The position numbers and the translations under genes were made by a program. Shown piece after piece: positions 1 to 17,112 of a stretch of DNA of 17,112 nt. The stretch is taken from positions 1 through 17,112 of IMG/VR virus record IMGVR_UViG_2695420699_000006, one strand, 5' to 3'. The stretch's first letter is position 1. The number at the start of each line of letters is the position of its first letter. The DNA is from a virus. Lineage: Duplodnaviria > Heunggongvirae > Uroviricota > Caudoviricetes. Under the pieces are notes generated by a model. It was given only the letters and a program-made list of their open reading frames with translations, was not told where the DNA came from and searched no databases.

Positions 1-1638
1 GCCTGCCAGCGCCATCTTGATGACCTGATGGCGGAAAAAAGTAAGTCGTTTCGTTACCGCTTCGACAAGGACCTGGCTGAACGGGCCGCCAAATTTATTC
101 AGCTGTTGCCGCACACCAAGGGTGAGTGGGCATTTAAGAGGATGCCCATCACGCTGGAGCCGTGGCAGCTCTTTGTGATCTGCTGCGCGTTTGGCTGGGT
201 CAATAAAGGCTCCCGGCTGCGCCGCTTCCGTGAGGTGTATACCGAAATCCCCCGTAAGAACGGCAAATCGGCAATCTCTGCCGGTGTCGCCCTGTATTGT
301 TTTGCCTGTGATAACGAGTTTGGTGCGGAAGTGTATTCCGGTGCCACGACAGAGAAACAGGCGTGGGAAGTCTTTCGCCCGGCGCGACTGATGTGTAAAC
401 GCACACCCATGCTGACGGAAGCGTTCGGGATTGAGGTTAACGCCTCAAACATGAACCGTCCGGAGGATGGCGCGCGGTTTGAACCGCTGATCGGCAACCC
501 CGGTGATGGCTCATCACCCCACTGTGCGGTGGTGGATGAATATCACGAGCATGCCACCGATGCGCTTTATACCACAATGCTTACCGGGATGGGGGCGCGA
601 CGTCAGCCACTGATGTGGGCCATCACCACCGCCGGGTACAACATTGAGGGGCCGTGCTACGACAAGCGGCGGGAAGTCATCGAGATGCTCAACGGCTCGG
701 TGCCTAACGATGAACTGTTCGGGATCATCTATACCGTTGATGAAGGTGACGACTGGACCGACCCGCAGGTGCTGGAAAAAGCCAATCCAAATATTGGCGT
801 GTCGGTTTATCGCGAATTTTTGTTAAGTCAGCAGCAGCGTGCGAAAAATAACGCCCGTCTGGCAAACGTCTTTAAAACAAAACACCTCAATATCTGGGTG
901 TCGGCGCGTTCGGCGTATTTCAACCTGGTGAGCTGGCAGAGCTGCGAGGATAAATCACTGACCCTTGAGCAGTTCGAGGGGCAGCCGTGCATTCTGGCCT
1001 TTGACCTGGCGCGTAAGCTGGATATGAACAGCATGGCGCGACTTTATACCCGCGAGATTGACGGTAAAACGCATTACTACAGTGTGGCCCCGCGCTTCTG
1101 GGTACCGTATGACACGGTGTACAGCGTCGAGAAAAATGAAGATAGACGGACAGCCGAACGCTTTCAGAAATGGGTGGAAATGGGCGTCCTGACCGTTACC
1201 GATGGTGCAGAGGTGGATTATCGCTACATCCTCGAGGAGGCCAAAGCGGCGAACAAAATCAGCCCGGTCAGTGAGTCACCCATCGACCCCTTCGGGGCGA
1301 CCGGGCTGTCGCATGACCTTGCTGATGAAGACCTGAACCCCATCACCATTATTCAGAACTACACCAACATGTCCGATCCGATGAAAGAGCTGGAAGCGGC
1401 GATTGAATCGGGGCGCTTTCATCATGACGGCAATCCCATCATGACCTGGTGTATCGGCAACGTGGTCGGCAAAACCATTCCGGGTAACGATGATGTGGTG
1501 AAGCCTGTCAAGGAGCAGGCGGAAAACAAAATCGATGGTGCGGTTGCACTGATTATGGCGATCGGTCGGGCAATGCTCAAAGAACCCGACGATTTCCTCT
1601 CATCTCTTGATCCGGACGATGCTCTCTTAATTCTATGA
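1..1638 (+). CDS. Phage terminase large subunit; 5' end uncertain because the reading frame is open from base 1 (first in-window ATG at 28)
   Basis: More than 536 aa. N-terminal ATPase motifs PRKNGKS (Walker A-like) and AVVDEYHE (Walker B-like), followed by a C-terminal region typical of the nuclease domain. First gene of a head-gene block, immediately upstream of portal. Confidence 0.85.
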
Positions 1639-6137: not shown

Positions 6138-6694
6138 AACTGACGCCTGTTATTGCTGCGCTGCGTGCCCGCTGCCCGTATTTTGAAAACCGGGTGGCAG
6201 GCGCGGCACAGTTCAAAAATCTGCCGGAGGTCGGAAAGCTGAGACTCCCGGCGGCATATGTTGTACCGGGTGATGATTCTCCGGGAGAAAACAAAAGCCA
6301 GACCGACTACTGGCAGGAGCTGAAAGAGGGCTTCTCCGTGGTTGTCATACTGAGTAACGGGCGTGATGAGCGCGGTCAGTTTGCCTCGTATGATGTGGTG
6401 GACGATGTCCGGCAGATGCTCTTTAAGGCTCTGCTGGGCTGGAACCCGGAAGCGTGCGGTAACCCGATTACCTATGACGGCGGCACGCTGCTGGATCTGA
6501 ATCGTCATGAGCTGATTTATCAGTTCGATTTTTCGGTCATCAGCGAGCTGACCGAAGACGATACCCGCCAGCAGGATGACCTGAACAGTCTGGATGAACT
6601 GCGAACGCTGGCGATTGATGTTGATTATCTCGATCCCGGTAACGGGCCTGACGGCGATATCGAACATCACACCGAAATACCCCTTCCTTCCTGA
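6134..6694 (+). CDS. Putative neck / tail terminator protein (Mu-type, DUF1834-like); function inferred from position
   Basis: 186 aa, ATGA overlap with the upstream gene. Lies between head-completion genes and the tail sheath. No motif recognised with certainty. Confidence 0.4.
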   Translation: MKLTPVIAALRARCPYFENRVAGAAQFKNLPEVGKLRLPAAYVVPGDDSPGENKSQTDYWQELKEGFSVVVILSNGRDERGQFASYDVVDDVRQMLFKALLGWNPEACGNPITYDGGTLLDLNRHELIYQFDFSVISELTEDDTRQQDDLNSLDELRTLAIDVDYLDPGNGPDGDIEHHTEIPLPS

Positions 6695-6702
6695 GGATCA
6701 TC

Positions 6703-6873
6703 ATGTTTGTGAAACCTGTTAAAGGGCGGTCAGTGCCTGACCCTGCCCGCGGCGACCTTTTGCCCGCCGAAGGGCGAAATGTTGATGAGAACAACTACTG
6801 GCTGCGCCGTGAAGCAGCGGGTGATATCCGGCGCGTGAATAAAAAGGTGAACACCGATGACGATAAGCTTTAA
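6703..6873 (+). CDS. Small conserved-position protein (56 aa), function unknown
   Basis: Hand translation gives MFVKPVKGRSVPDPARGDLLPAEGRNVDENNYWLRREAAGDIRRVNKKVNTDDDKL. GAGGA RBS 5 nt upstream. Fills the gap before the sheath gene and overlaps its start by 17 nt. Below the ORF-track cutoff. Confidence 0.35.
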   Translation: MFVKPVKGRSVPDPARGDLLPAEGRNVDENNYWLRREAAGDIRRVNKKVNTDDDKL

Positions 6874-8353
6874 CACCATTCCGTCGAATACGCTGGTTCC
6901 GCTGTTTTATGCGGAAATGGATAACCAGGCTGCGAATACTGCACAGGACAGCGGAGCATCGCTGCTGATTGGTCATGCCAATAACGGTGCAGAGATTGTT
7001 GCCAACAGTCTGGTGCTGATGCCGTCGGCAGACTATGCACGCCAGATTTGTGGTGCGGGAAGTCAGCTGGCGCGTATGGTCGAGGCTTATCGCCAGACCG
7101 ACCCGTTTGGTGAGCTGTATGTGATTGCCGTTCCGGAAGCCACAGGCGCGGCGGCAACGGTTACGCTGACGGTGACCGGGGCGGCAACCGAAAGCGGCAC
7201 GGTGAATGTCTATGTGGGACGTACCCGTGTGCAGGCTTCGGTGACCAACGGCGATAACGTCACGACGATTGCCAGCAGTATCCAGGATGCCATCAATGCC
7301 GTTCCGACCCTGCCGTTTACGGCCTCATCTTCGGCAGGCGTGGTCACACTGACCGCGCGTCATAAGGGGCTTTGCGGGAATGAAATTCCTGTCAGCCTCA
7401 ATTACTACGGCTTTGGTGGGGGCGAAGTGCTGCCTGCGGGCGTACAGATTGCCGTGGCGACGGGGACCGCCGGAACGGGCTCTCCTGTTCTCACTGGCGC
7501 GGTGGCTGCAATGGCGGATGAGCCGTTTGATTATATCGGCCTGCCGTTCAACGACACGGCCTCCGTTAACACGCTGGTGACCGAGATGAACGATACCAGC
7601 GGTCGCTGGAGCTATGCGCGTCAGCTGTATGGTCATGTGTATACGGCAAAGATCGGCACGCTGTCAGAACTGGTGACCGCAGGTGACCAGTTTAACCAGC
7701 AGCACATTACCCTGGCGGGGTATGAAAAAGACACCCAGACGCCTGCCGATGAGCTGGCGGCAAGCCGTACCGCCCGCGCAGCGGTGTTTATTCGCAACGA
7801 TCCGGCACGTCCCACGCAGACCGGTGAGCTGGTGGGTATGCTGCCTGCGCCGAAGGGGAAACGGTTCACGATGACCGAACAACAGACCCTGCTGTCTCAT
7901 GGCGTGGCAACGGCGTATGTCGAAAGCGGGGTACTGCGCATTCAGCGTGATGTCACCACGTACAGGAAAAACGCTTACGGGGTTGCGGATAACAGCTACC
8001 TCGACAGCGAGACGCTGCATACCAGCGCGTATGTACTGCGCAAACTGAAATCCGTCATTACCAGTAAGTACGGGCGTCACAAGCTTGCCAGTGACGGTAC
8101 CCGCTTTGGTCCCGGTCAGGCGATTGTCACCCCGGCGGTGATCAAAGGGGAACTGCTGGCAACCTACCGTCAGCTTGAGCGAGCGGGGATCGTGGAAAAC
8201 TACGAACTGTTTAAGCAGTACCTGGTTGTGGAGCGTGATGCCAGCGATCCGAACCGCCTGAACACGCTGTTCCCGCCTGACTATGTTAACCAGTTGCGTG
8301 TTTTTGCCGTGGTTAACCAGTTCCGTCTTCAGTATTCAGAGGAGTCTGCATAA
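6857..8353 (+). CDS. Contractile tail sheath protein (Mu gpL-like)
   Basis: 498 aa, immediately upstream of a ~118-aa tube gene. Size and order are typical of Mu-type sheath proteins. Confidence 0.8.
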   Translation: MTISFNTIPSNTLVPLFYAEMDNQAANTAQDSGASLLIGHANNGAEIVANSLVLMPSADYARQICGAGSQLARMVEAYRQTDPFGELYVIAVPEATGAAATVTLTVTGAATESGTVNVYVGRTRVQASVTNGDNVTTIASSIQDAINAVPTLPFTASSSAGVVTLTARHKGLCGNEIPVSLNYYGFGGGEVLPAGVQIAVATGTAGTGSPVLTGAVAAMADEPFDYIGLPFNDTASVNTLVTEMNDTSGRWSYARQLYGHVYTAKIGTLSELVTAGDQFNQQHITLAGYEKDTQTPADELAASRTARAAVFIRNDPARPTQTGELVGMLPAPKGKRFTMTEQQTLLSHGVATAYVESGVLRIQRDVTTYRKNAYGVADNSYLDSETLHTSAYVLRKLKSVITSKYGRHKLASDGTRFGPGQAIVTPAVIKGELLATYRQLERAGIVENYELFKQYLVVERDASDPNRLNTLFPPDYVNQLRVFAVVNQFRLQYSEESA

Positions 8354-11629: not shown

Positions 11630-13003
11630 ATGGATTTTTCTCATATTTCTTCGTACCTATCCTCTGATTCTCGAAGTGGCTGGCGTGAAAAGCTACTTGA
11701 AGCATCATTTCGAGGTGTGCCGTTTAAGGTTGAAGAAGAAAGTGCGGGAACCGGTCGCCGTGTGGAAACACATGAATACCCGAACCGCGACAAGCCCTAT
11801 ACCGAAGATCTGGGAAAAGTCACTTTCCGCCCGTCCATCACAGCTTATGTGGTGGGAGATGACTGCTTTGACCAGCGCGATCGCCTGATTGAAGCGCTGA
11901 ATAAACCCGGTCCCGGCAAGCTTGTCCACCCGACATATGGTGAGCTGAAAGTCTGTGTTGACGGGGAAGTTCGGGTCAGCACATCGAAAAGTGAAGGGCG
12001 TATTGTCCGCTTTGACCTGAAGTTTGTCGAAGCAGGAGAACTCTCTTACCCCACATCAGGTGCGGCGACGGCGCAGACGCTGATGTCATCCTGTTCTGCA
12101 CTGGATGACTGCATCAGTGACAGTTTCAGTGGTTTCAGTATCGATGGCGTAGCGGATTTTGTGCAGAACGACGTCGTCGGTAATGCCAGCACAATGCTTG
12201 GGTATGTTTCTGATGCGATGAAAGTGGTGGATTCTGCCGTATCGGATGCCGCCAGGCTGTTGCAGGGGGATATCTCGGTACTTCTGCCGCCGCCATCGTC
12301 AGGCAAAAATTTCGTTGAGCAGGTGCAGAAAATGTGGCGTACCGGGAAACGCCTTTATGGTAACGCCAGCGACCTGGTCACCATGATCAAAACGCTTTCC
12401 GGTGTCAGCCTCGGCAGCGATCTGCAACCGCGCGGCGTCTGGAAAACGGACAGTAAAACCACCGCCACGGCGACGCAGCAGCGTAACGTGGTTGCCAGCA
12501 CCCTTCGTACGACCGCAATCAGCGAAGCGGCGTATGCCGTCACCCGATTGCCTGCGCCAACAACTTCCGCGGTGATGCAGAATTCCGCAGTGGGGCAGGC
12601 AACAACACCCGCGCAGAACACTGGCTGGCCTTCCGTCACGCATCCGGCACTGAACAATGCACCGGCGGTGAAAAACACGGTTGACCTGCCGACGTGGGAA
12701 GAACTGACTGACATTCGCGACACACTGAATACGGCAATTGATAAGGAGTTGTCCCGTACAACCAGCGATGCGCTGTTTCTGGCGCTGCGCCGGGTGAAAG
12801 CAGATCTGAATGCGGATATCAACACGCGCCTTGAACAGTCTGCACGGATCATTCAGCGCACACCGGATGAGGTTTTACCCGCGCTGGTGCTGGCGGCTAC
12901 CTGGTTTGATAACGCGGCGCGTGACGCGGACATTATCCGGCGTAATGCCATTACGCATCCCGGCTTTGTGCCGGTGATCCCTCTGAAGGTGCCAGTGCAA
13001 TGA
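11630..13003 (+). CDS. DNA circulation protein (Mu N / gp43-like)
   Basis: 457 aa. N-terminal WREKLLEASFRGVPF...GRRVETHEYPNRDKPYTEDLG matches the conserved DNA-circulation N-terminal domain. Sits between tape measure and baseplate hub as in Mu. Confidence 0.8.
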   Translation: MDFSHISSYLSSDSRSGWREKLLEASFRGVPFKVEEESAGTGRRVETHEYPNRDKPYTEDLGKVTFRPSITAYVVGDDCFDQRDRLIEALNKPGPGKLVHPTYGELKVCVDGEVRVSTSKSEGRIVRFDLKFVEAGELSYPTSGAATAQTLMSSCSALDDCISDSFSGFSIDGVADFVQNDVVGNASTMLGYVSDAMKVVDSAVSDAARLLQGDISVLLPPPSSGKNFVEQVQKMWRTGKRLYGNASDLVTMIKTLSGVSLGSDLQPRGVWKTDSKTTATATQQRNVVASTLRTTAISEAAYAVTRLPAPTTSAVMQNSAVGQATTPAQNTGWPSVTHPALNNAPAVKNTVDLPTWEELTDIRDTLNTAIDKELSRTTSDALFLALRRVKADLNADINTRLEQSARIIQRTPDEVLPALVLAATWFDNAARDADIIRRNAITHPGFVPVIPLKVPVQ

Positions 13004-14627: not shown

Positions 14628-15052
14628 TGGAACTGTGGCTGACGGTGAACGGTAAACGCACCTGCGCCAGCGCACCGCTGGATCCGCTGACCCGCGCCGT
14701 GGTGATTTCCCTGTTTACCTGGCGGCGGGCGGAGCCTGATGACAACGCCGACGTCCCGATGGGATGGTGGGGGGATACCTGGCCTGCGGTACAGAATGAC
14801 CGTTACGGCTCCCGACTGTGGCTGCTTCAGCGCAGCAAACTGACCAATCAGCTGGTGCTGACGGTAAGGGGGTATATCCGCGAATGCCTGCAATGGATGA
14901 TTGATGACGGCGTGGTGTCCCGTATTGATCTGGATATCCACCGCACCGGGATTAATGAACTGGGTAACAGTATCACTCTCTGGCGTCGTGACGGACCGGT
15001 AATGATTTCTTTTGATGATCTGTGGAGTGCGATAACGCATGGCGGACAGTGA
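14624..15052 (+). CDS. Baseplate protein (Mu gp46-like, P2 gpW analogue)
   Basis: 142 aa, overlapping start and stop. Position between spike and the J-like baseplate wedge. Confidence 0.7.
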   Translation: MMELWLTVNGKRTCASAPLDPLTRAVVISLFTWRRAEPDDNADVPMGWWGDTWPAVQNDRYGSRLWLLQRSKLTNQLVLTVRGYIRECLQWMIDDGVVSRIDLDIHRTGINELGNSITLWRRDGPVMISFDDLWSAITHGGQ

Positions 15053-16097
15053 ATTTCAGCGCCCGACGCTGGCAGAAAATATCAGTATGCTCCGTAACGA
15101 TTTATTCGCCAGGCTGGACGTCAGCGACACGCTCCGGCGCATGGATGAAGACGTGCGGGCAAAGGTGTATGCGGCGGCGCTGCATACGGTTTACGGGTAC
15201 ATCGATTATCTGGCAATGAACATGCTGCCTGACCTGTGCGATGAGTCCTGGCTGGCGCGACATGCTGCGATGAAACGGTGTCCGCGCAAGGGGGCCACGG
15301 CTGCCAGCGGGTATATGCGCTGGGAAGGTGTCAGCGATGGCCTGAAGGTGACCGCCGGGAGTGTTATTCAGCGCGATGACCTGGTTCAGTACACGGCAAC
15401 TGCCGATGCAACCAGCTCCGGTGGTGTCCTGCGCGTGCCGATCGCCTGCTCAAGTGCAGGCGCGGTCGGTAACGCTGACGACGGTACGTCATTAATCCTG
15501 GTCACGCCGGTTAATGGTCTGCCGTCTTCCGGCGTGGCAGATACCCTGACAGGCGGATTTGATACTGAAGAGCTGGAAACGTGGCGCGCCCGCGTCATTG
15601 AGCGGTATTACTGGACGCCTCAGGGCGGGGCTGACGGGGACTATGTCGTCTGGGCTAAAGAAGTGCCCGGCATTACCCGCGCATGGACATACCGTCACTG
15701 GATGGGAACGGGAACTGTCGGTGTGATGATTGCCAGCAGTGACCTGATTAATCCCATTCCGGAAGAATCAACGGAAACGGCAGCAAGACAACATATCGGG
15801 CCACAGGCCCCGGTGGCAGGCTCTGATTTGTATGTATTCAGGCCGGTGGCACATACGGTGGATTTTCATATCCGCGTGACGCCGGACACACCGGAAATAC
15901 GGGCTGCCATTACCGCGGAGTTGCGTTCGTTCCTGCTGCGTGATGGTTATCCGCAGGGAGAACTGAAGGTATCGCGTATCAGTGAGGCGATTTCCGGTGC
16001 GAACGGGGAATACAGCCATCAGTTGCTTGCACCGGTGGACAATATCTCCATTGCGAAAAACGAACTGGCGGTACTGGGGACGATTTCATGGACGTGA
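15039..16097 (+). CDS. Baseplate J-like wedge protein (Mu gp47-like)
   Basis: 352 aa. Size and synteny. Corresponds to the e14 jayE-type gene. Confidence 0.8.
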
Positions 16098-16672
16098 CAA
16101 ACGATGATTACATCCGCCTGTTATCGGCACTGTTGCCGCCCGGTCCGGCGTGGTCAGCCAGCGATCTGGCGATTGCCGGTGCGGCACCGTCATTAACTCG
16201 TGTTCATCAGCGTGCGGATGCCCTGATGCGGGAGCTGGATCCGCGCACCACCACTGAACTGATAAACCGCTGGGAGCGTCTGTGCGGTCTGCCGGATGAA
16301 TGTATTCCGGCGGGAACGCAGACCCTTCGCCAGCGTCAGCAACGGCTGGATGCGAAGGTTAACCTGGCGGGCGGCATCAACGAGGATTTTTATCTTGCAC
16401 AGCTTGCTGCCCTGGGCAGACCAGATGCCACCATCACGCGATACGACAAAAGCACGTTCACCTGCTCATCGGCCTGTACTGACGCGCTGAATGCGCCGGA
16501 ATGGCGGTATTACTGGCAGGTCAACATGCCAACCACCACCAACACCACCTGGATGACATGTGGCGATCCCTGTGATTCCGCACTGCGTATCTGGGGTGAC
16601 ACCGTTGTCGAGTGTGTGCTTAACAAACTCTGCCCGTCGCATACCTACGTAATTTTTAAATATCCGGAGTAA
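16088..16672 (+). CDS. Tail protein (Mu gp48-like, YmfQ/DUF2313-like, P2 gpI analogue)
   Basis: 194 aa, overlapping the J-like gene. Directly upstream of the tail fiber, as ymfQ is in e14. Confidence 0.75.
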
Positions 16673-16675
16673 TCC

Positions 16676-17043
16676 ATGCATCGTATAGACACGAAAACCG
16701 CGCAGAAGGATAAGTTCGGCGCGGGTAAGAACGGTTTTACCCGTGGTAACCCCCAGACCGGCACGCCTGCCACCGATCTGGATGATGACTACTTTGACAT
16801 GTTGCAGGAGGAGCTTTGCAGCGTTGTGGAGGCGTCCGGTGCCAGCCTGGAGAAGGGGCGGCACGACCAGCTACTTACCGCGCTTCGCGCGCTGCTGTTA
16901 AGCCGCAAGAATCCGTTTGGCGATATCAAATCGGATGGCACTGTGCAAACGGCTCTCGAAAACCTTGGATTGCAGACTATTAGACCCGACCCTGTATCCA
17001 CGAAGATTTTCTCTCCTGATTTGAAAAAATTTCTCCTGGTGTC
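16676..17043 (+). CDS. Tail fiber protein, N-terminal constant region only; truncated by IS insertion
   Basis: ATG at 16676 with GGAG RBS. Hand translation [74 protein letters not shown]... resembles the conserved baseplate-attachment N-terminus of Mu/e14-type tail fibers. Frame is open to the window edge, but sequence from 17044 is an IS end. Confidence 0.65.
16953..16978. other. Candidate Din-family (Gin/Pin/Cin/Hin) invertase crossover site inside the tail fiber gene
   Basis: CTCTCGAAAACC-TT-GGATTGCAGACT resembles the 26-bp gix site (TTATCCAAAACC-TC-GGTTTACAGGAA, quoted from memory). It encodes ENLGLQ in the same codon register as gix encodes QNLGLQ. Confidence 0.35.
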
Positions 17044-17112
17044 TGGATTTGCCCCTATATTTCCAGACACCTGTTATCACTTAACCCATTACTGGCTTGC
17101 TGCCGTAGATAT
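17044..17112 (-). mobile_element. IS2-like (IS3 family) insertion sequence, one end; element runs off the window
   Basis: TGGATTTGCCCCTATATTTCCAGACACCTGTTATCACTTAACCCATTAC is a near match to the reverse complement of the IS2 right end as I recall it (TGGATTTGCCCCTATATTTCCAGACATCTGTTATCACTTAACCCATTAC). Confidence 0.7.
17055..17112 (-). CDS. IS3-family transposase OrfB, C-terminal fragment (partial)
   Basis: Minus-strand translation ends ...[18 protein letters not shown]-stop, against the IS2 OrfB C-terminus ...[18 protein letters not shown] (from memory). Stop codon at 17055-17057. Confidence 0.6.

Follow-up and report, generated by a model that had tools for sequence, protein, structure and literature searches.

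A pixL-type crossover site in the tail fibre gene of an e14-family prophage: probable relic of a Pin switch locked in one orientation and later interrupted by an IS3-family element

One question raised by the end of this prophage sequence is whether a 26-bp motif inside its tail fibre gene, which resembles the crossover sites of the Din invertases, is part of a working host-range switch. The tail fibre switches of the Pin, Gin and Cin type, with their 26-bp sites, are textbook systems that date back to the 1980s. A Pin dimer binds to each 26-bp site, the DNA is cleaved at the central dinucleotide and the segment is rotated; canonical inversion exchanges one Sv-TAP cassette for another. The DNA analysed here (hereafter the window) is the whole 17,112-nt stretch of the viral record IMGVR_UViG_2695420699_000006, and the fibre gene with its site lies close to its right end.

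Taken as a whole, the window is the intact head-tail module of a phage of the e14 family, with baseplate genes of the Mu type. Only positions 502-1560 and 15310-16972 of it are kept in K-12 e14, and the latter stretch is 98% identical at the nucleotide level. Over its last 700 bp the window matches ymfQ-stfP (ycfK) of K-12 e14 and of thousands of E. coli genomes, and relatives annotate the orthologue of the window fibre gene as stfP or ycfK. The gene belongs to the e14-family StfP, as indicated by an orthologous constant region that follows ymfQ and ends with ...ALENLGL at the site. In K-12, the classical P region (tfaP, tfaE, stfE) comes after ymfQ-stfP, and then pinE. Homology to K-12 e14 and to ~1,800 other E. 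coli genomes stops at window position ~16972, inside the 26-mer. The site is therefore a real constant/variable boundary of the fibre, and the sequence-only reading, which had placed it at the end of the conserved N-terminal region, was correct on this point.

The 26-mer at positions 16953-16978 reads CTCTCGAAAACC-TT-GGATTGCAGACT, with the letters and the position as they had been quoted, and it is located inside the ORF that starts with the ATG at 16676 (Table 1). A Din-type site has two imperfect inverted half-sites of 12 bp, with the consensus TTC---AAAC- / -GTTT---GAA, on either side of a 2-bp core. Published sites of the hix, gix, cix, pix, mix and bix types are collected in Table 3 of PMC3241671, and half-sites were scored with a weight matrix (PWM) built from just 13 published sites. 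Read on the opposite strand, pixL is CTCTCGAAAACC-TT-GGTTTGGGAGAA (PMC3241671). The first 16 nt of the window site (outer half-site, TT and GG) match the published e14 pixL, and seven of the ten remaining positions differ. The outer 12-mer scored 14.4 bits, which places it in the top 0.006% of the window 12-mers, and the inner 12-mer scored -1.4 bits, a value reached by ~4% of random 12-mers. The total of 13.0 bits comes entirely from the outer half; the 13 published sites span 16.2-30.5 bits. The inner half GGATTGCAGACT is identical to the pix inner half at 5 of 12 positions and to the gix inner half at 7 of 12, and it has neither the T at position 3 nor the terminal GAA with which all the functional inner halves compared (published, Y5/AR_0137 and EC958) finish. 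In the comparison set of 80 viral contigs with a shared constant region, the site motif was detected in 66, and in all of these the outer half-site is invariant. The short core AAACCNNGG occurs twice in the window against 2.25 occurrences expected, i.e. at chance level. Hence, the proposed resemblance to gix and pix exceeds chance in the outer 12-mer but not in the inner 12-mer or in the short core alone, and alignment with gix, pix, cix and hix returned a pix-like outer half and core next to a non-canonical inner half.

The window (ALENLGLQT), e14 (ALENLGLGE) and the Mu S gene at gixL (FIQNLGLQE) all have the site starting at codon phase 1, so the common register with the Gin/Pin-type sites (..NLGL..) that had been noticed earlier is genuine. 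Judged by its sequence, the 26-mer appears to be the orthologue of pixL, and would thus be a Din-type crossover site by descent. Its identity to pixL in the outer half is due to orthology (the constant region is 98% identical) and not to independent convergence, and would not represent independent evidence of function.

Table 1. Position of the features around the crossover site (window coordinates).
Feature	Position	Strand	Basis
ymfQ (Mu gp48-like baseplate gene), directly upstream of the fibre gene	16088-16672	+	YmfQ family in relatives; Pfam Phage_Mu_Gp48 on identical protein
Tail fibre gene, 5' part (codons 1-122 plus 2 nt), StfP/YcfK orthologue	16676-17043	+	Translation; e14 identity; cut by the IS
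Outer (constant-region) half-site CTCTCGAAAACC	16953-16964	+	Identical to e14 pixL outer half; PWM 14.4 bits
Central crossover dinucleotide TT	16965-16966	+	Other strand AA, as in pix, cix and hix
Degenerate inner half-site GGATTGCAGACT	16967-16978	+	PWM -1.4 bits; without the GGTTT...GAA of functional Din inner halves
First 77 nt of the mobile Sv (receptor-binding) cassette	16967-17043	+	Continues to 202 aa in L005/L001
Terminal 69 bp of IS3-family (IS2-like) element interrupting the fibre gene	17044-17112		Identity to IS-free twins ends at 17043/17044

The gene order beyond the fibre was read in relatives without the IS. Two of these contigs (L005 and L008) are 100% identical to window positions 15039-17043 and several others are 98-99.5% identical. 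In these IS-free twins the frame runs through the site and the next 65 bp into an intact fibre of 302 aa. Annotation pipelines label this intact 302-aa fibre as a truncated stfP pseudogene. The fibre gene is followed, in the same direction, by a tail-fibre-assembly gene (Caudo_TAP, 164 aa), and ~75 bp past it, ~1.1 kb downstream of the site, lies an intact serine recombinase. In L005 this invertase (12053-12607) matched PF00239 (Resolvase, 1.3e-50) and PF02796 (HTH_7, 3.6e-13). It has 184 aa and is 87% identical to e14 PinE in an ungapped alignment, with the YARVST (catalytic serine) and WKLDRLGRS motifs intact, and its DNA is 77.6% identical to pinE over 544 nt. In Din-family inversion systems the 5' part of the invertase gene includes a Fis-dependent recombinational enhancer (sis), the Fis sites of which are too degenerate to be recognised in sequence alone. 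A second, divergent allele of 187 aa, 56% identical to PinE, occupies the same slot in L001 and L003, and wherever the contig of an IS-free relative extends over the gene, the invertase is intact. The pin-like serine invertase that had been predicted downstream of the site was thus found as a Pin orthologue in the IS-free twins, not within the window itself; the genome of the window presumably carries the same genes beyond the IS.

A partner site was searched with the same matrix. As positive control, the scan recovered pixL (29.1 bits) and pixR (26.6 bits) of e14 at a distance of 1,797 nt, which agrees with the 1,797 bp reported for the e14 invertible segment (PMC12529663). In 2.7 kb of the IS-free twins nothing besides the left site (13.0 bits) rose above the level of shuffled sequence and no site reached 15 bits, and in the full 20-kb loci nothing exceeded the weak score of the left site itself and no inverted partner site was detected. 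The second, inverted copy of the site expected downstream was absent from the twins, whereas the e14 control did return its pixR. One candidate upstream of pin, AGAATAGGAACC-TT-TTTTATAACCAT, was rejected, both of its halves being poor and the polarity of its core wrong. Canonical loci, i.e. those with the inner half GGTTTGGGAGAA, commonly have a partner TTCTCCCAAACC-AA-CGTTTATGAAAA ~55 bp upstream of pin; their TAP genes are mostly on both strands and many of them have a partner site. All ten loci with the inner half of the window showed one Sv, one forward TAP and no partner site. Where an invertible segment had been proposed, the window lineage shows a single forward Sv-TAP cassette, with no partner site within 20 kb and no flipped copy in the databases searched.

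The two ends of this cassette were compared with those of the canonical segments. The left junction in the window lineage is CTCTCGAAAACC-TT-GG followed by ATTGCAGACT..., and the right junction runs from the TAP stop as ...TAGG into AA-CCTTT... and then into an intact pin-family gene. The register of the right site (...ATAGG-AA-CCTTT...) was set by alignment to the canonical loci L038 and L072, whose right site is TTCTCCCAAACC-AA-CCTTTCAAATATTTTTCTGAATCAGG...; the corresponding sequence in E. coli FG31-1 is ...CCAGCATAGG-AA-CCTTTCAAATATTTTTCTGAATCAGG.... FG31-1 is one of the carriers of the IS-free prophage, others being the samples SRR6915219, ERR14031762 and SRR29490125. FG31-1 and the canonical loci are identical outward from the AA core, and the inner half is replaced by the 3' end of the TAP gene. 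The best half of the right relic scored 5.6 bits (L005) or 0.9 bits (L001), against at least 12.8 bits in all 13 published sites, and its total was 3.0 or -3.9 bits. Both inner half-sites are missing in the window lineage, the pin-proximal site consists of the AA core plus a weak outer half, and homology to the canonical loci breaks at or beside both central dinucleotides.

The best explanation, which we consider probable, is that the locus is the relic of an e14-type Pin switch that was locked ON in one specificity and then received an IS3-family insertion at 17044. In canonical relatives pixL lies in the fibre gene and pixR ~55 bp upstream of pin, with a 1.8-kb segment between them. The interior of this segment, including both inner half-sites, would have been replaced by one forward cassette devoid of Din half-sites, leaving one good half at the left site, none at the right site and no alternative cassette. 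Without a right half and an alternative cassette, the switch would be left as a relic, probably locked in the ON orientation, and from the sequence of the relic sites Pin is predicted to be unable to use them. The outer half and the crossover dinucleotide of pixL would persist because they are part of the conserved coding sequence of the constant region. The IS3-family (IS2-like) element would then have inserted after codon 122, truncating the fibre.

The cassette, composed of a 202-aa receptor-binding C-terminus and its own tail-fibre-assembly chaperone, was also found elsewhere. The 202-aa Sv domain gave 60 clusters in a large protein collection and no tblastn match among 50,697 phage genomes, which leaves the cassette without a named reference phage, and it is joined at an invariant LGL/QTI to at least six unrelated N-termini. 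The same cassette with the same two end-points is present in three unrelated backbones: e14-like (forward), the P2-like L092 (reversed) and a myovirus-type backbone without invertase. In the last of these, a different prophage backbone represented by L093-L096, the same relic TTCTTCAATACC-TT-GGATTGCAGACC is found, with a good outer and a poor inner half, followed by a single Sv-TAP; the 6 kb read beyond it contain no invertase. The assumption that the motif implies an invertase nearby fails in these loci; the motif, embedded in conserved coding sequence, persists there as a relic. This indicates that a gix/pix-like motif at the constant/variable boundary of a fibre is insufficient proof of a working switch. 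L091 (P2-like) has a segment with two cassettes adjoining a resolvase, in which the present cassette is the silent one; its first codons, GGTTTGCAGACA, keep the canonical GGTTT. In L092 a lone cassette is reversed with respect to the constant region of the fibre, so that fibre H reads ...LLAYL/PIQV and then a stop in the antisense TAP end; the junction is ...TATAGG-AA-GGTATGCGAGAA and both sites keep a good half (11.5 and 12.5 bits). In its P2-like context the L092 cassette was found in neither orientation among the complete E. coli genomes, and the arrangement in L092 may have arisen by inversion or by deletion.

The 3' end of the cassette TAP gene is ...CCAGAATAGGAACCTTT, and the end ...ATAGG-AA-CCTTT precedes three different downstream sequences. 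This confines the right break-point to 7 nt, which coincide with the core and initial outer bases of the canonical pin-proximal site. That the boundaries of the cassette fall exactly on both crossover dinucleotides in unrelated backbones is the one mildly new point of this locus, and provides a small piece of natural evidence on the exchange of host-range cassettes between phages. It is possible, although we regard it only as a tentative proposal, that it represents the footprint of cassette capture by a Din invertase, or of a deletion at a quasi-site located 1 nt past the TAP stop (...ATAGG-AA-). Events of this kind at quasi-sites have been proposed from experiments with P1 Cin, according to the citations given in PMC4134206 (its refs 50 and 51), and invertase-type cassette events are rarely documented in natural genomes. 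The cassette could have arrived by invertase action at quasi-sites or, equally, by ordinary exchange through short shared sequences. If the former were true, invertases would, in addition to flipping host-range cassettes, move them between phages and "freeze" them.

The main rival to a locked relic is a switch that still works at low frequency, with Pin bound to the good left outer half and loaded cooperatively on the poor halves, so that the single cassette would flip and the phage would vary between ON (fibre) and OFF (no fibre) instead of exchanging specificities. The canonical left outer half and central dinucleotide, the matching inverted AA core kept by the right relic and an intact pin in all IS-free relatives (which could mean that it is still used) are consistent with this. 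Natural Din sites with one poor half do function (hixR, 0.8/15.5 bits; mix, 4-7/13-14 bits), and the left site alone cannot therefore be called dead. The change of T to A at inner position 3 (GGATT) was considered as lethal by itself, an argument that is weakened by the half-site GGATTTGGAGAA of AR_0137, which flips. What speaks for loss of function is the lack of the distal GAA together with the dead right-hand site, neither half of which is usable (best half 5.6 or 0.9 bits, where published sites reach at least 12.8). In EC958, where long reads revealed flipping segments, the inner halves are all GGTTTA..GAA (PMC4134206). The reversed cassette of L092, with the same end-points, is the structure that a single-cassette flip would produce, but L092 differs from the window lineage in having a good half at both sites.

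The orientation of the cassette was also assessed directly. A synthetic flipped junction was built by joining the constant region at the core to the antisense TAP end (...GCTCTCGAAAACCTT to CCTATTCTGGTTTTTCTGG); it was found in none of 5,426 complete E. coli genomes, whereas the native arrangement was present in 4 of them. The fusion peptide of the OFF state (ALENL plus antisense TAP, ...ALENLPILVFLATL...) had no relative in 5.8 billion protein clusters, against at least 18 contigs with ON-state fibres carrying the e14-type constant region. These counts come from an arrangement carried by only 4 complete genomes and ~18 contigs, and from assemblies that give the majority orientation only, so that rare flipping would escape notice. 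As control, canonical segments showed both orientations in a sample of merely 80 loci: six e14-type cassette types occur both active and silent, and K-12 and L056 are exact flips of each other for the canonical e14-type segment. In a further control, a P2-like prophage differs between Y5 and AR_0137 by an exact inversion of 1,189 bp, with sites of 25-27 bits. (Y5/AR_0137 was also considered as a flipping single-cassette segment and rejected, since two Sv ends and two strong sites are present.) In addition, the OFF state would yield fibreless particles, the benefit of which is not obvious. Altogether, we consider a low-frequency switch improbable.

Beyond the site, the 65 nt at 16979-17043 have a GC content of 0.415, at the 6th percentile of 65-nt windows; that of the whole window is 0.539. 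The unusual composition ascribed to them is therefore real but mild, and does not amount to aberrance. Nor do they encode an atypical peptide of a disrupted variable region, since they are the conserved start of the intact 202-aa domain and are broken solely by the IS. The element does begin ~65 bp past the site, at 17044 and within the variable part of the fibre, as had been read from the sequence. The 69 terminal bases that lie in the window match, at 100% identity, multi-copy elements with the annotation "IS3 family transposase", of which there are up to 39 per genome; its end sequence is IS2-like, and it may be IS2 specifically. The IS interrupts the fibre after codon 122 and the reading frame enters foreign sequence at 17044. 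Hence, this copy of the prophage cannot make a functional fibre. A 12-nt inverted repeat between the insertion point of the IS (TTCTCCTGGTGT) and the leader of the recombinase was discarded as a chance pair, with six such pairs in 2.2 kb; the second arm of the TTCTCCTGGTGT repeat belongs to a local hairpin.

A different possibility is that the genome of the window differs from the twins beyond the IS, for example through an IS-mediated deletion or inversion of the rest of the cassette and pin, in which case nothing could be said of this copy past its truncated fibre. The window ends 69 bp into the IS, with the opposite end and the target duplication outside it, and the exact fibre/IS junction had no match in 185,579 representative genomes and none in the 5,426 complete E. 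coli genomes, where the best matches stop at 17043. IS3-family elements can mediate rearrangements and are multi-copy in these genomes. Against this, L005 and L008 show 100% identity to the window over the 2 kb that precede the junction, which suggests a recent simple insertion. We consider such a rearrangement very unlikely. A simple insertion would mean a 5-bp target duplication and then ...TAACACCAGTTTTGGAATG... beyond the IS.

The least probable alternative, which we consider hardly credible, is that recombination has no part in the motif, which would be conserved through the shared (N/Y)LGLQT peptide at the domain boundary next to a coincidental invertase: LGLQTI is indeed invariant across fibres with unrelated N-termini, L093-L096 carry the DNA motif with no invertase in the 6 kb read downstream and the minimal core AAACCNNGG occurs in the window at chance frequency, but the outer half and core are identical to pixL at the nucleotide level within a constant region that is 98% e14, the pin orthologue is at the position expected from e14, at the right junction the pin-proximal site still has its core and outer half, and in phages with a working switch the location of the site within coding sequence itself explains the codon conservation, so that orthology, as far as sequence comparison goes, would largely refute this reading.

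With the relic of a Pin switch as the favoured reading, the locus was compared with the known systems. It is like the e14 Pin/P-segment (pixL, pixR, pinE; stfP-tfaP/stfE-tfaE) in its constant region (98% of nucleotides), ymfQ upstream, outer half-site, central dinucleotide and codon phase (ALENLGL), and in the pin orthologue present downstream in the twins (87% of amino acids). Unlike e14, it has a replaced inner half (5/12), one forward Sv-TAP instead of two convergent cassettes and an IS in the fibre; of the pin-proximal site its lineage keeps just the core with a weak outer half, and no polymorphism of orientation is seen. With the Mu Gin/G segment (gixL, gixR) and the P1 Cin/C segment (cix) it shares the 12 + 2 + 12 site with its AAAACC-NN-GG core, the position of the site where Sc meets Sv, read in the same phase (Mu FIQNLGLQE), and, in the twins, an invertase just past the segment. 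Mu differs in its gix dinucleotide (GA/TC, against TT/AA in the window) and in having two perfect sites and two cassettes, and the inner half of the window, identical to that of gix at 7/12, lacks the terminal GAA. The segments Phi1, Phi2 and Phi4 of EC958 (PMC4134206) and that of Y5/AR_0137 also have 26-bp sites at the constant/variable boundary of the fibre in E. coli prophages. A local invertase that is truncated, with inversion presumably occurring in trans, is also known from them; they have two strong sites (25-27 bits in Y5/AR_0137) with GGTTT/GGATT...GAA, and are observed in both orientations, whereas the window lineage has neither.

The site of the window is therefore the orthologue of a known system, that of e14, in a decayed state, and offers little new biology. 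Orphan or trans-acting pins, and truncated invertases near flipping segments, have already been described (PMC12529663, PMC4134206). The twins resemble the orphan Din invertases, such as PinQ, in keeping a pin-family gene beside fibre genes without an obviously working segment of its own. Qin and Rac are not known to have an invertible segment of their own. The Qin invertase PinQ acts in trans on the P segment of e14 and inverts it (PMC12529663), and by analogy the invertase of the twins could act in trans on canonical sites elsewhere in the genome.

Only two parts of the structural module survive in K-12 e14, namely a terminase remnant and a baseplate-J remnant with ymfQ and stfP, and the window therefore displays the undeleted e14-type morphogenesis region, with terminase, portal, sheath, tube, tape measure and a baseplate resembling Mu gp44-48. 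In the IS-free relative L001 (E. coli FG31-1, NZ_CP142680.1), RefSeq labels positions 6277-6573 as 'StfP, incomplete, missing C-terminus'. The fibre ORF (6277-7186) nevertheless stays in frame and encodes a 302-aa protein, so that the 'incomplete StfP' call is an annotation artefact, which arises because the protein is named after e14 StfP. Several NCBI assemblies (L004-L006) have no call at all for the 302-aa fibre gene. Coordinates of the features compared are collected in the table.

Positions of the compared features in the window and related loci
Feature	Position	Remarks
K-12 e14 remnants: terminase remnant; baseplate-J remnant with ymfQ and stfP	window 502-1560 and 15310-16972	
Recombinase genes compared	L005 12053-12607; L003 12054-12617	L003/L001 type vs L005/L007 type
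Leader stem	L005 12021-12049; L001 7709-7735	about 5-30 nt 5' of recombinase ATG; IS-free relatives
Relic site and TAP end	L093-L096 6419-6444 and 7520-7545	different myovirus-type prophage
Reversed Sv-TAP cassette	L092 1548-2675 (GCA_014468095.1)	opposite to fibre H constant region
Site pair	L048 (viral contig)	left site after Sc; partner about 2.2 kb downstream

In one slot downstream of the shared Sv-TAP cassette (the receptor-binding C-terminus and the tail-fibre-assembly gene), two very different Din invertase alleles occur, one in L005/L007 and the other in L003/L001. The former has 184 aa and is 87% identical to PinE, the latter 187 aa and 56%, and the two types begin to differ just about 45 nt ahead of the recombinase start codon. 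It appears that prophages exchange the invertase gene itself. A perfect 11-12-bp stem with the arms TTTCTCCTGTTT...AACAGGAGAAA is kept in the recombinase leader of both divergent alleles of the window's lineage. Folding placed the Shine-Dalgarno sequence within this stem, with minimum free energies of -16 (L005) and -15.4 kcal/mol (L001) and z-scores of -4.3 and -5.2, respectively. The invertase may be under translational control by the sequestering stem. The equivalent leader of K-12 pinE folded no better than its shuffles (z = -0.85).

The window-lineage cassette, together with its TAP-stop...AA-CCTTT end, is shared by the prophages L093-L096, which have another myovirus-type backbone. Their relic site has a good outer half (TTCTTCAATACC-TT-GGATTGCAGACC), and neither an invertase gene nor, by tblastn, a Pin remnant was found in the 6 kb read downstream. 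The P2-like prophage L092 has the same cassette between the same two core dinucleotides, in reverse relative to the fibre H constant region, and H stops four codons beyond the core (…LLAYL|PIQV*). This arrangement reflects either a past inversion of a segment with one cassette or a deletion at a quasi-site immediately 3' of the TAP stop codon; neither orientation of the cassette in the P2-like context was found in complete E. coli genomes.

The left site of the viral contig L048 has the core TT (AA on the other strand), and its pin-proximal partner, TTCTTCTAAACC-GA-GGTTTATGAAAA, is good apart from the central dinucleotide. Since the central dinucleotides are mismatched, productive inversion should be blocked; judged from these sites, L048 is probably a locked switch as well.

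An exact 1,189-bp inversion (positions 1667-2855) distinguishes the otherwise identical P2-like prophages of E. coli Y5 and AR_0137 (L097 and L098). The adjoining recombinase gene is a mere 108-bp remnant, which implies that the inversion was made either in trans by a different Din invertase or before the recombinase gene was truncated. Of the two Sv ends in this segment, one lacks a TAP gene of its own.
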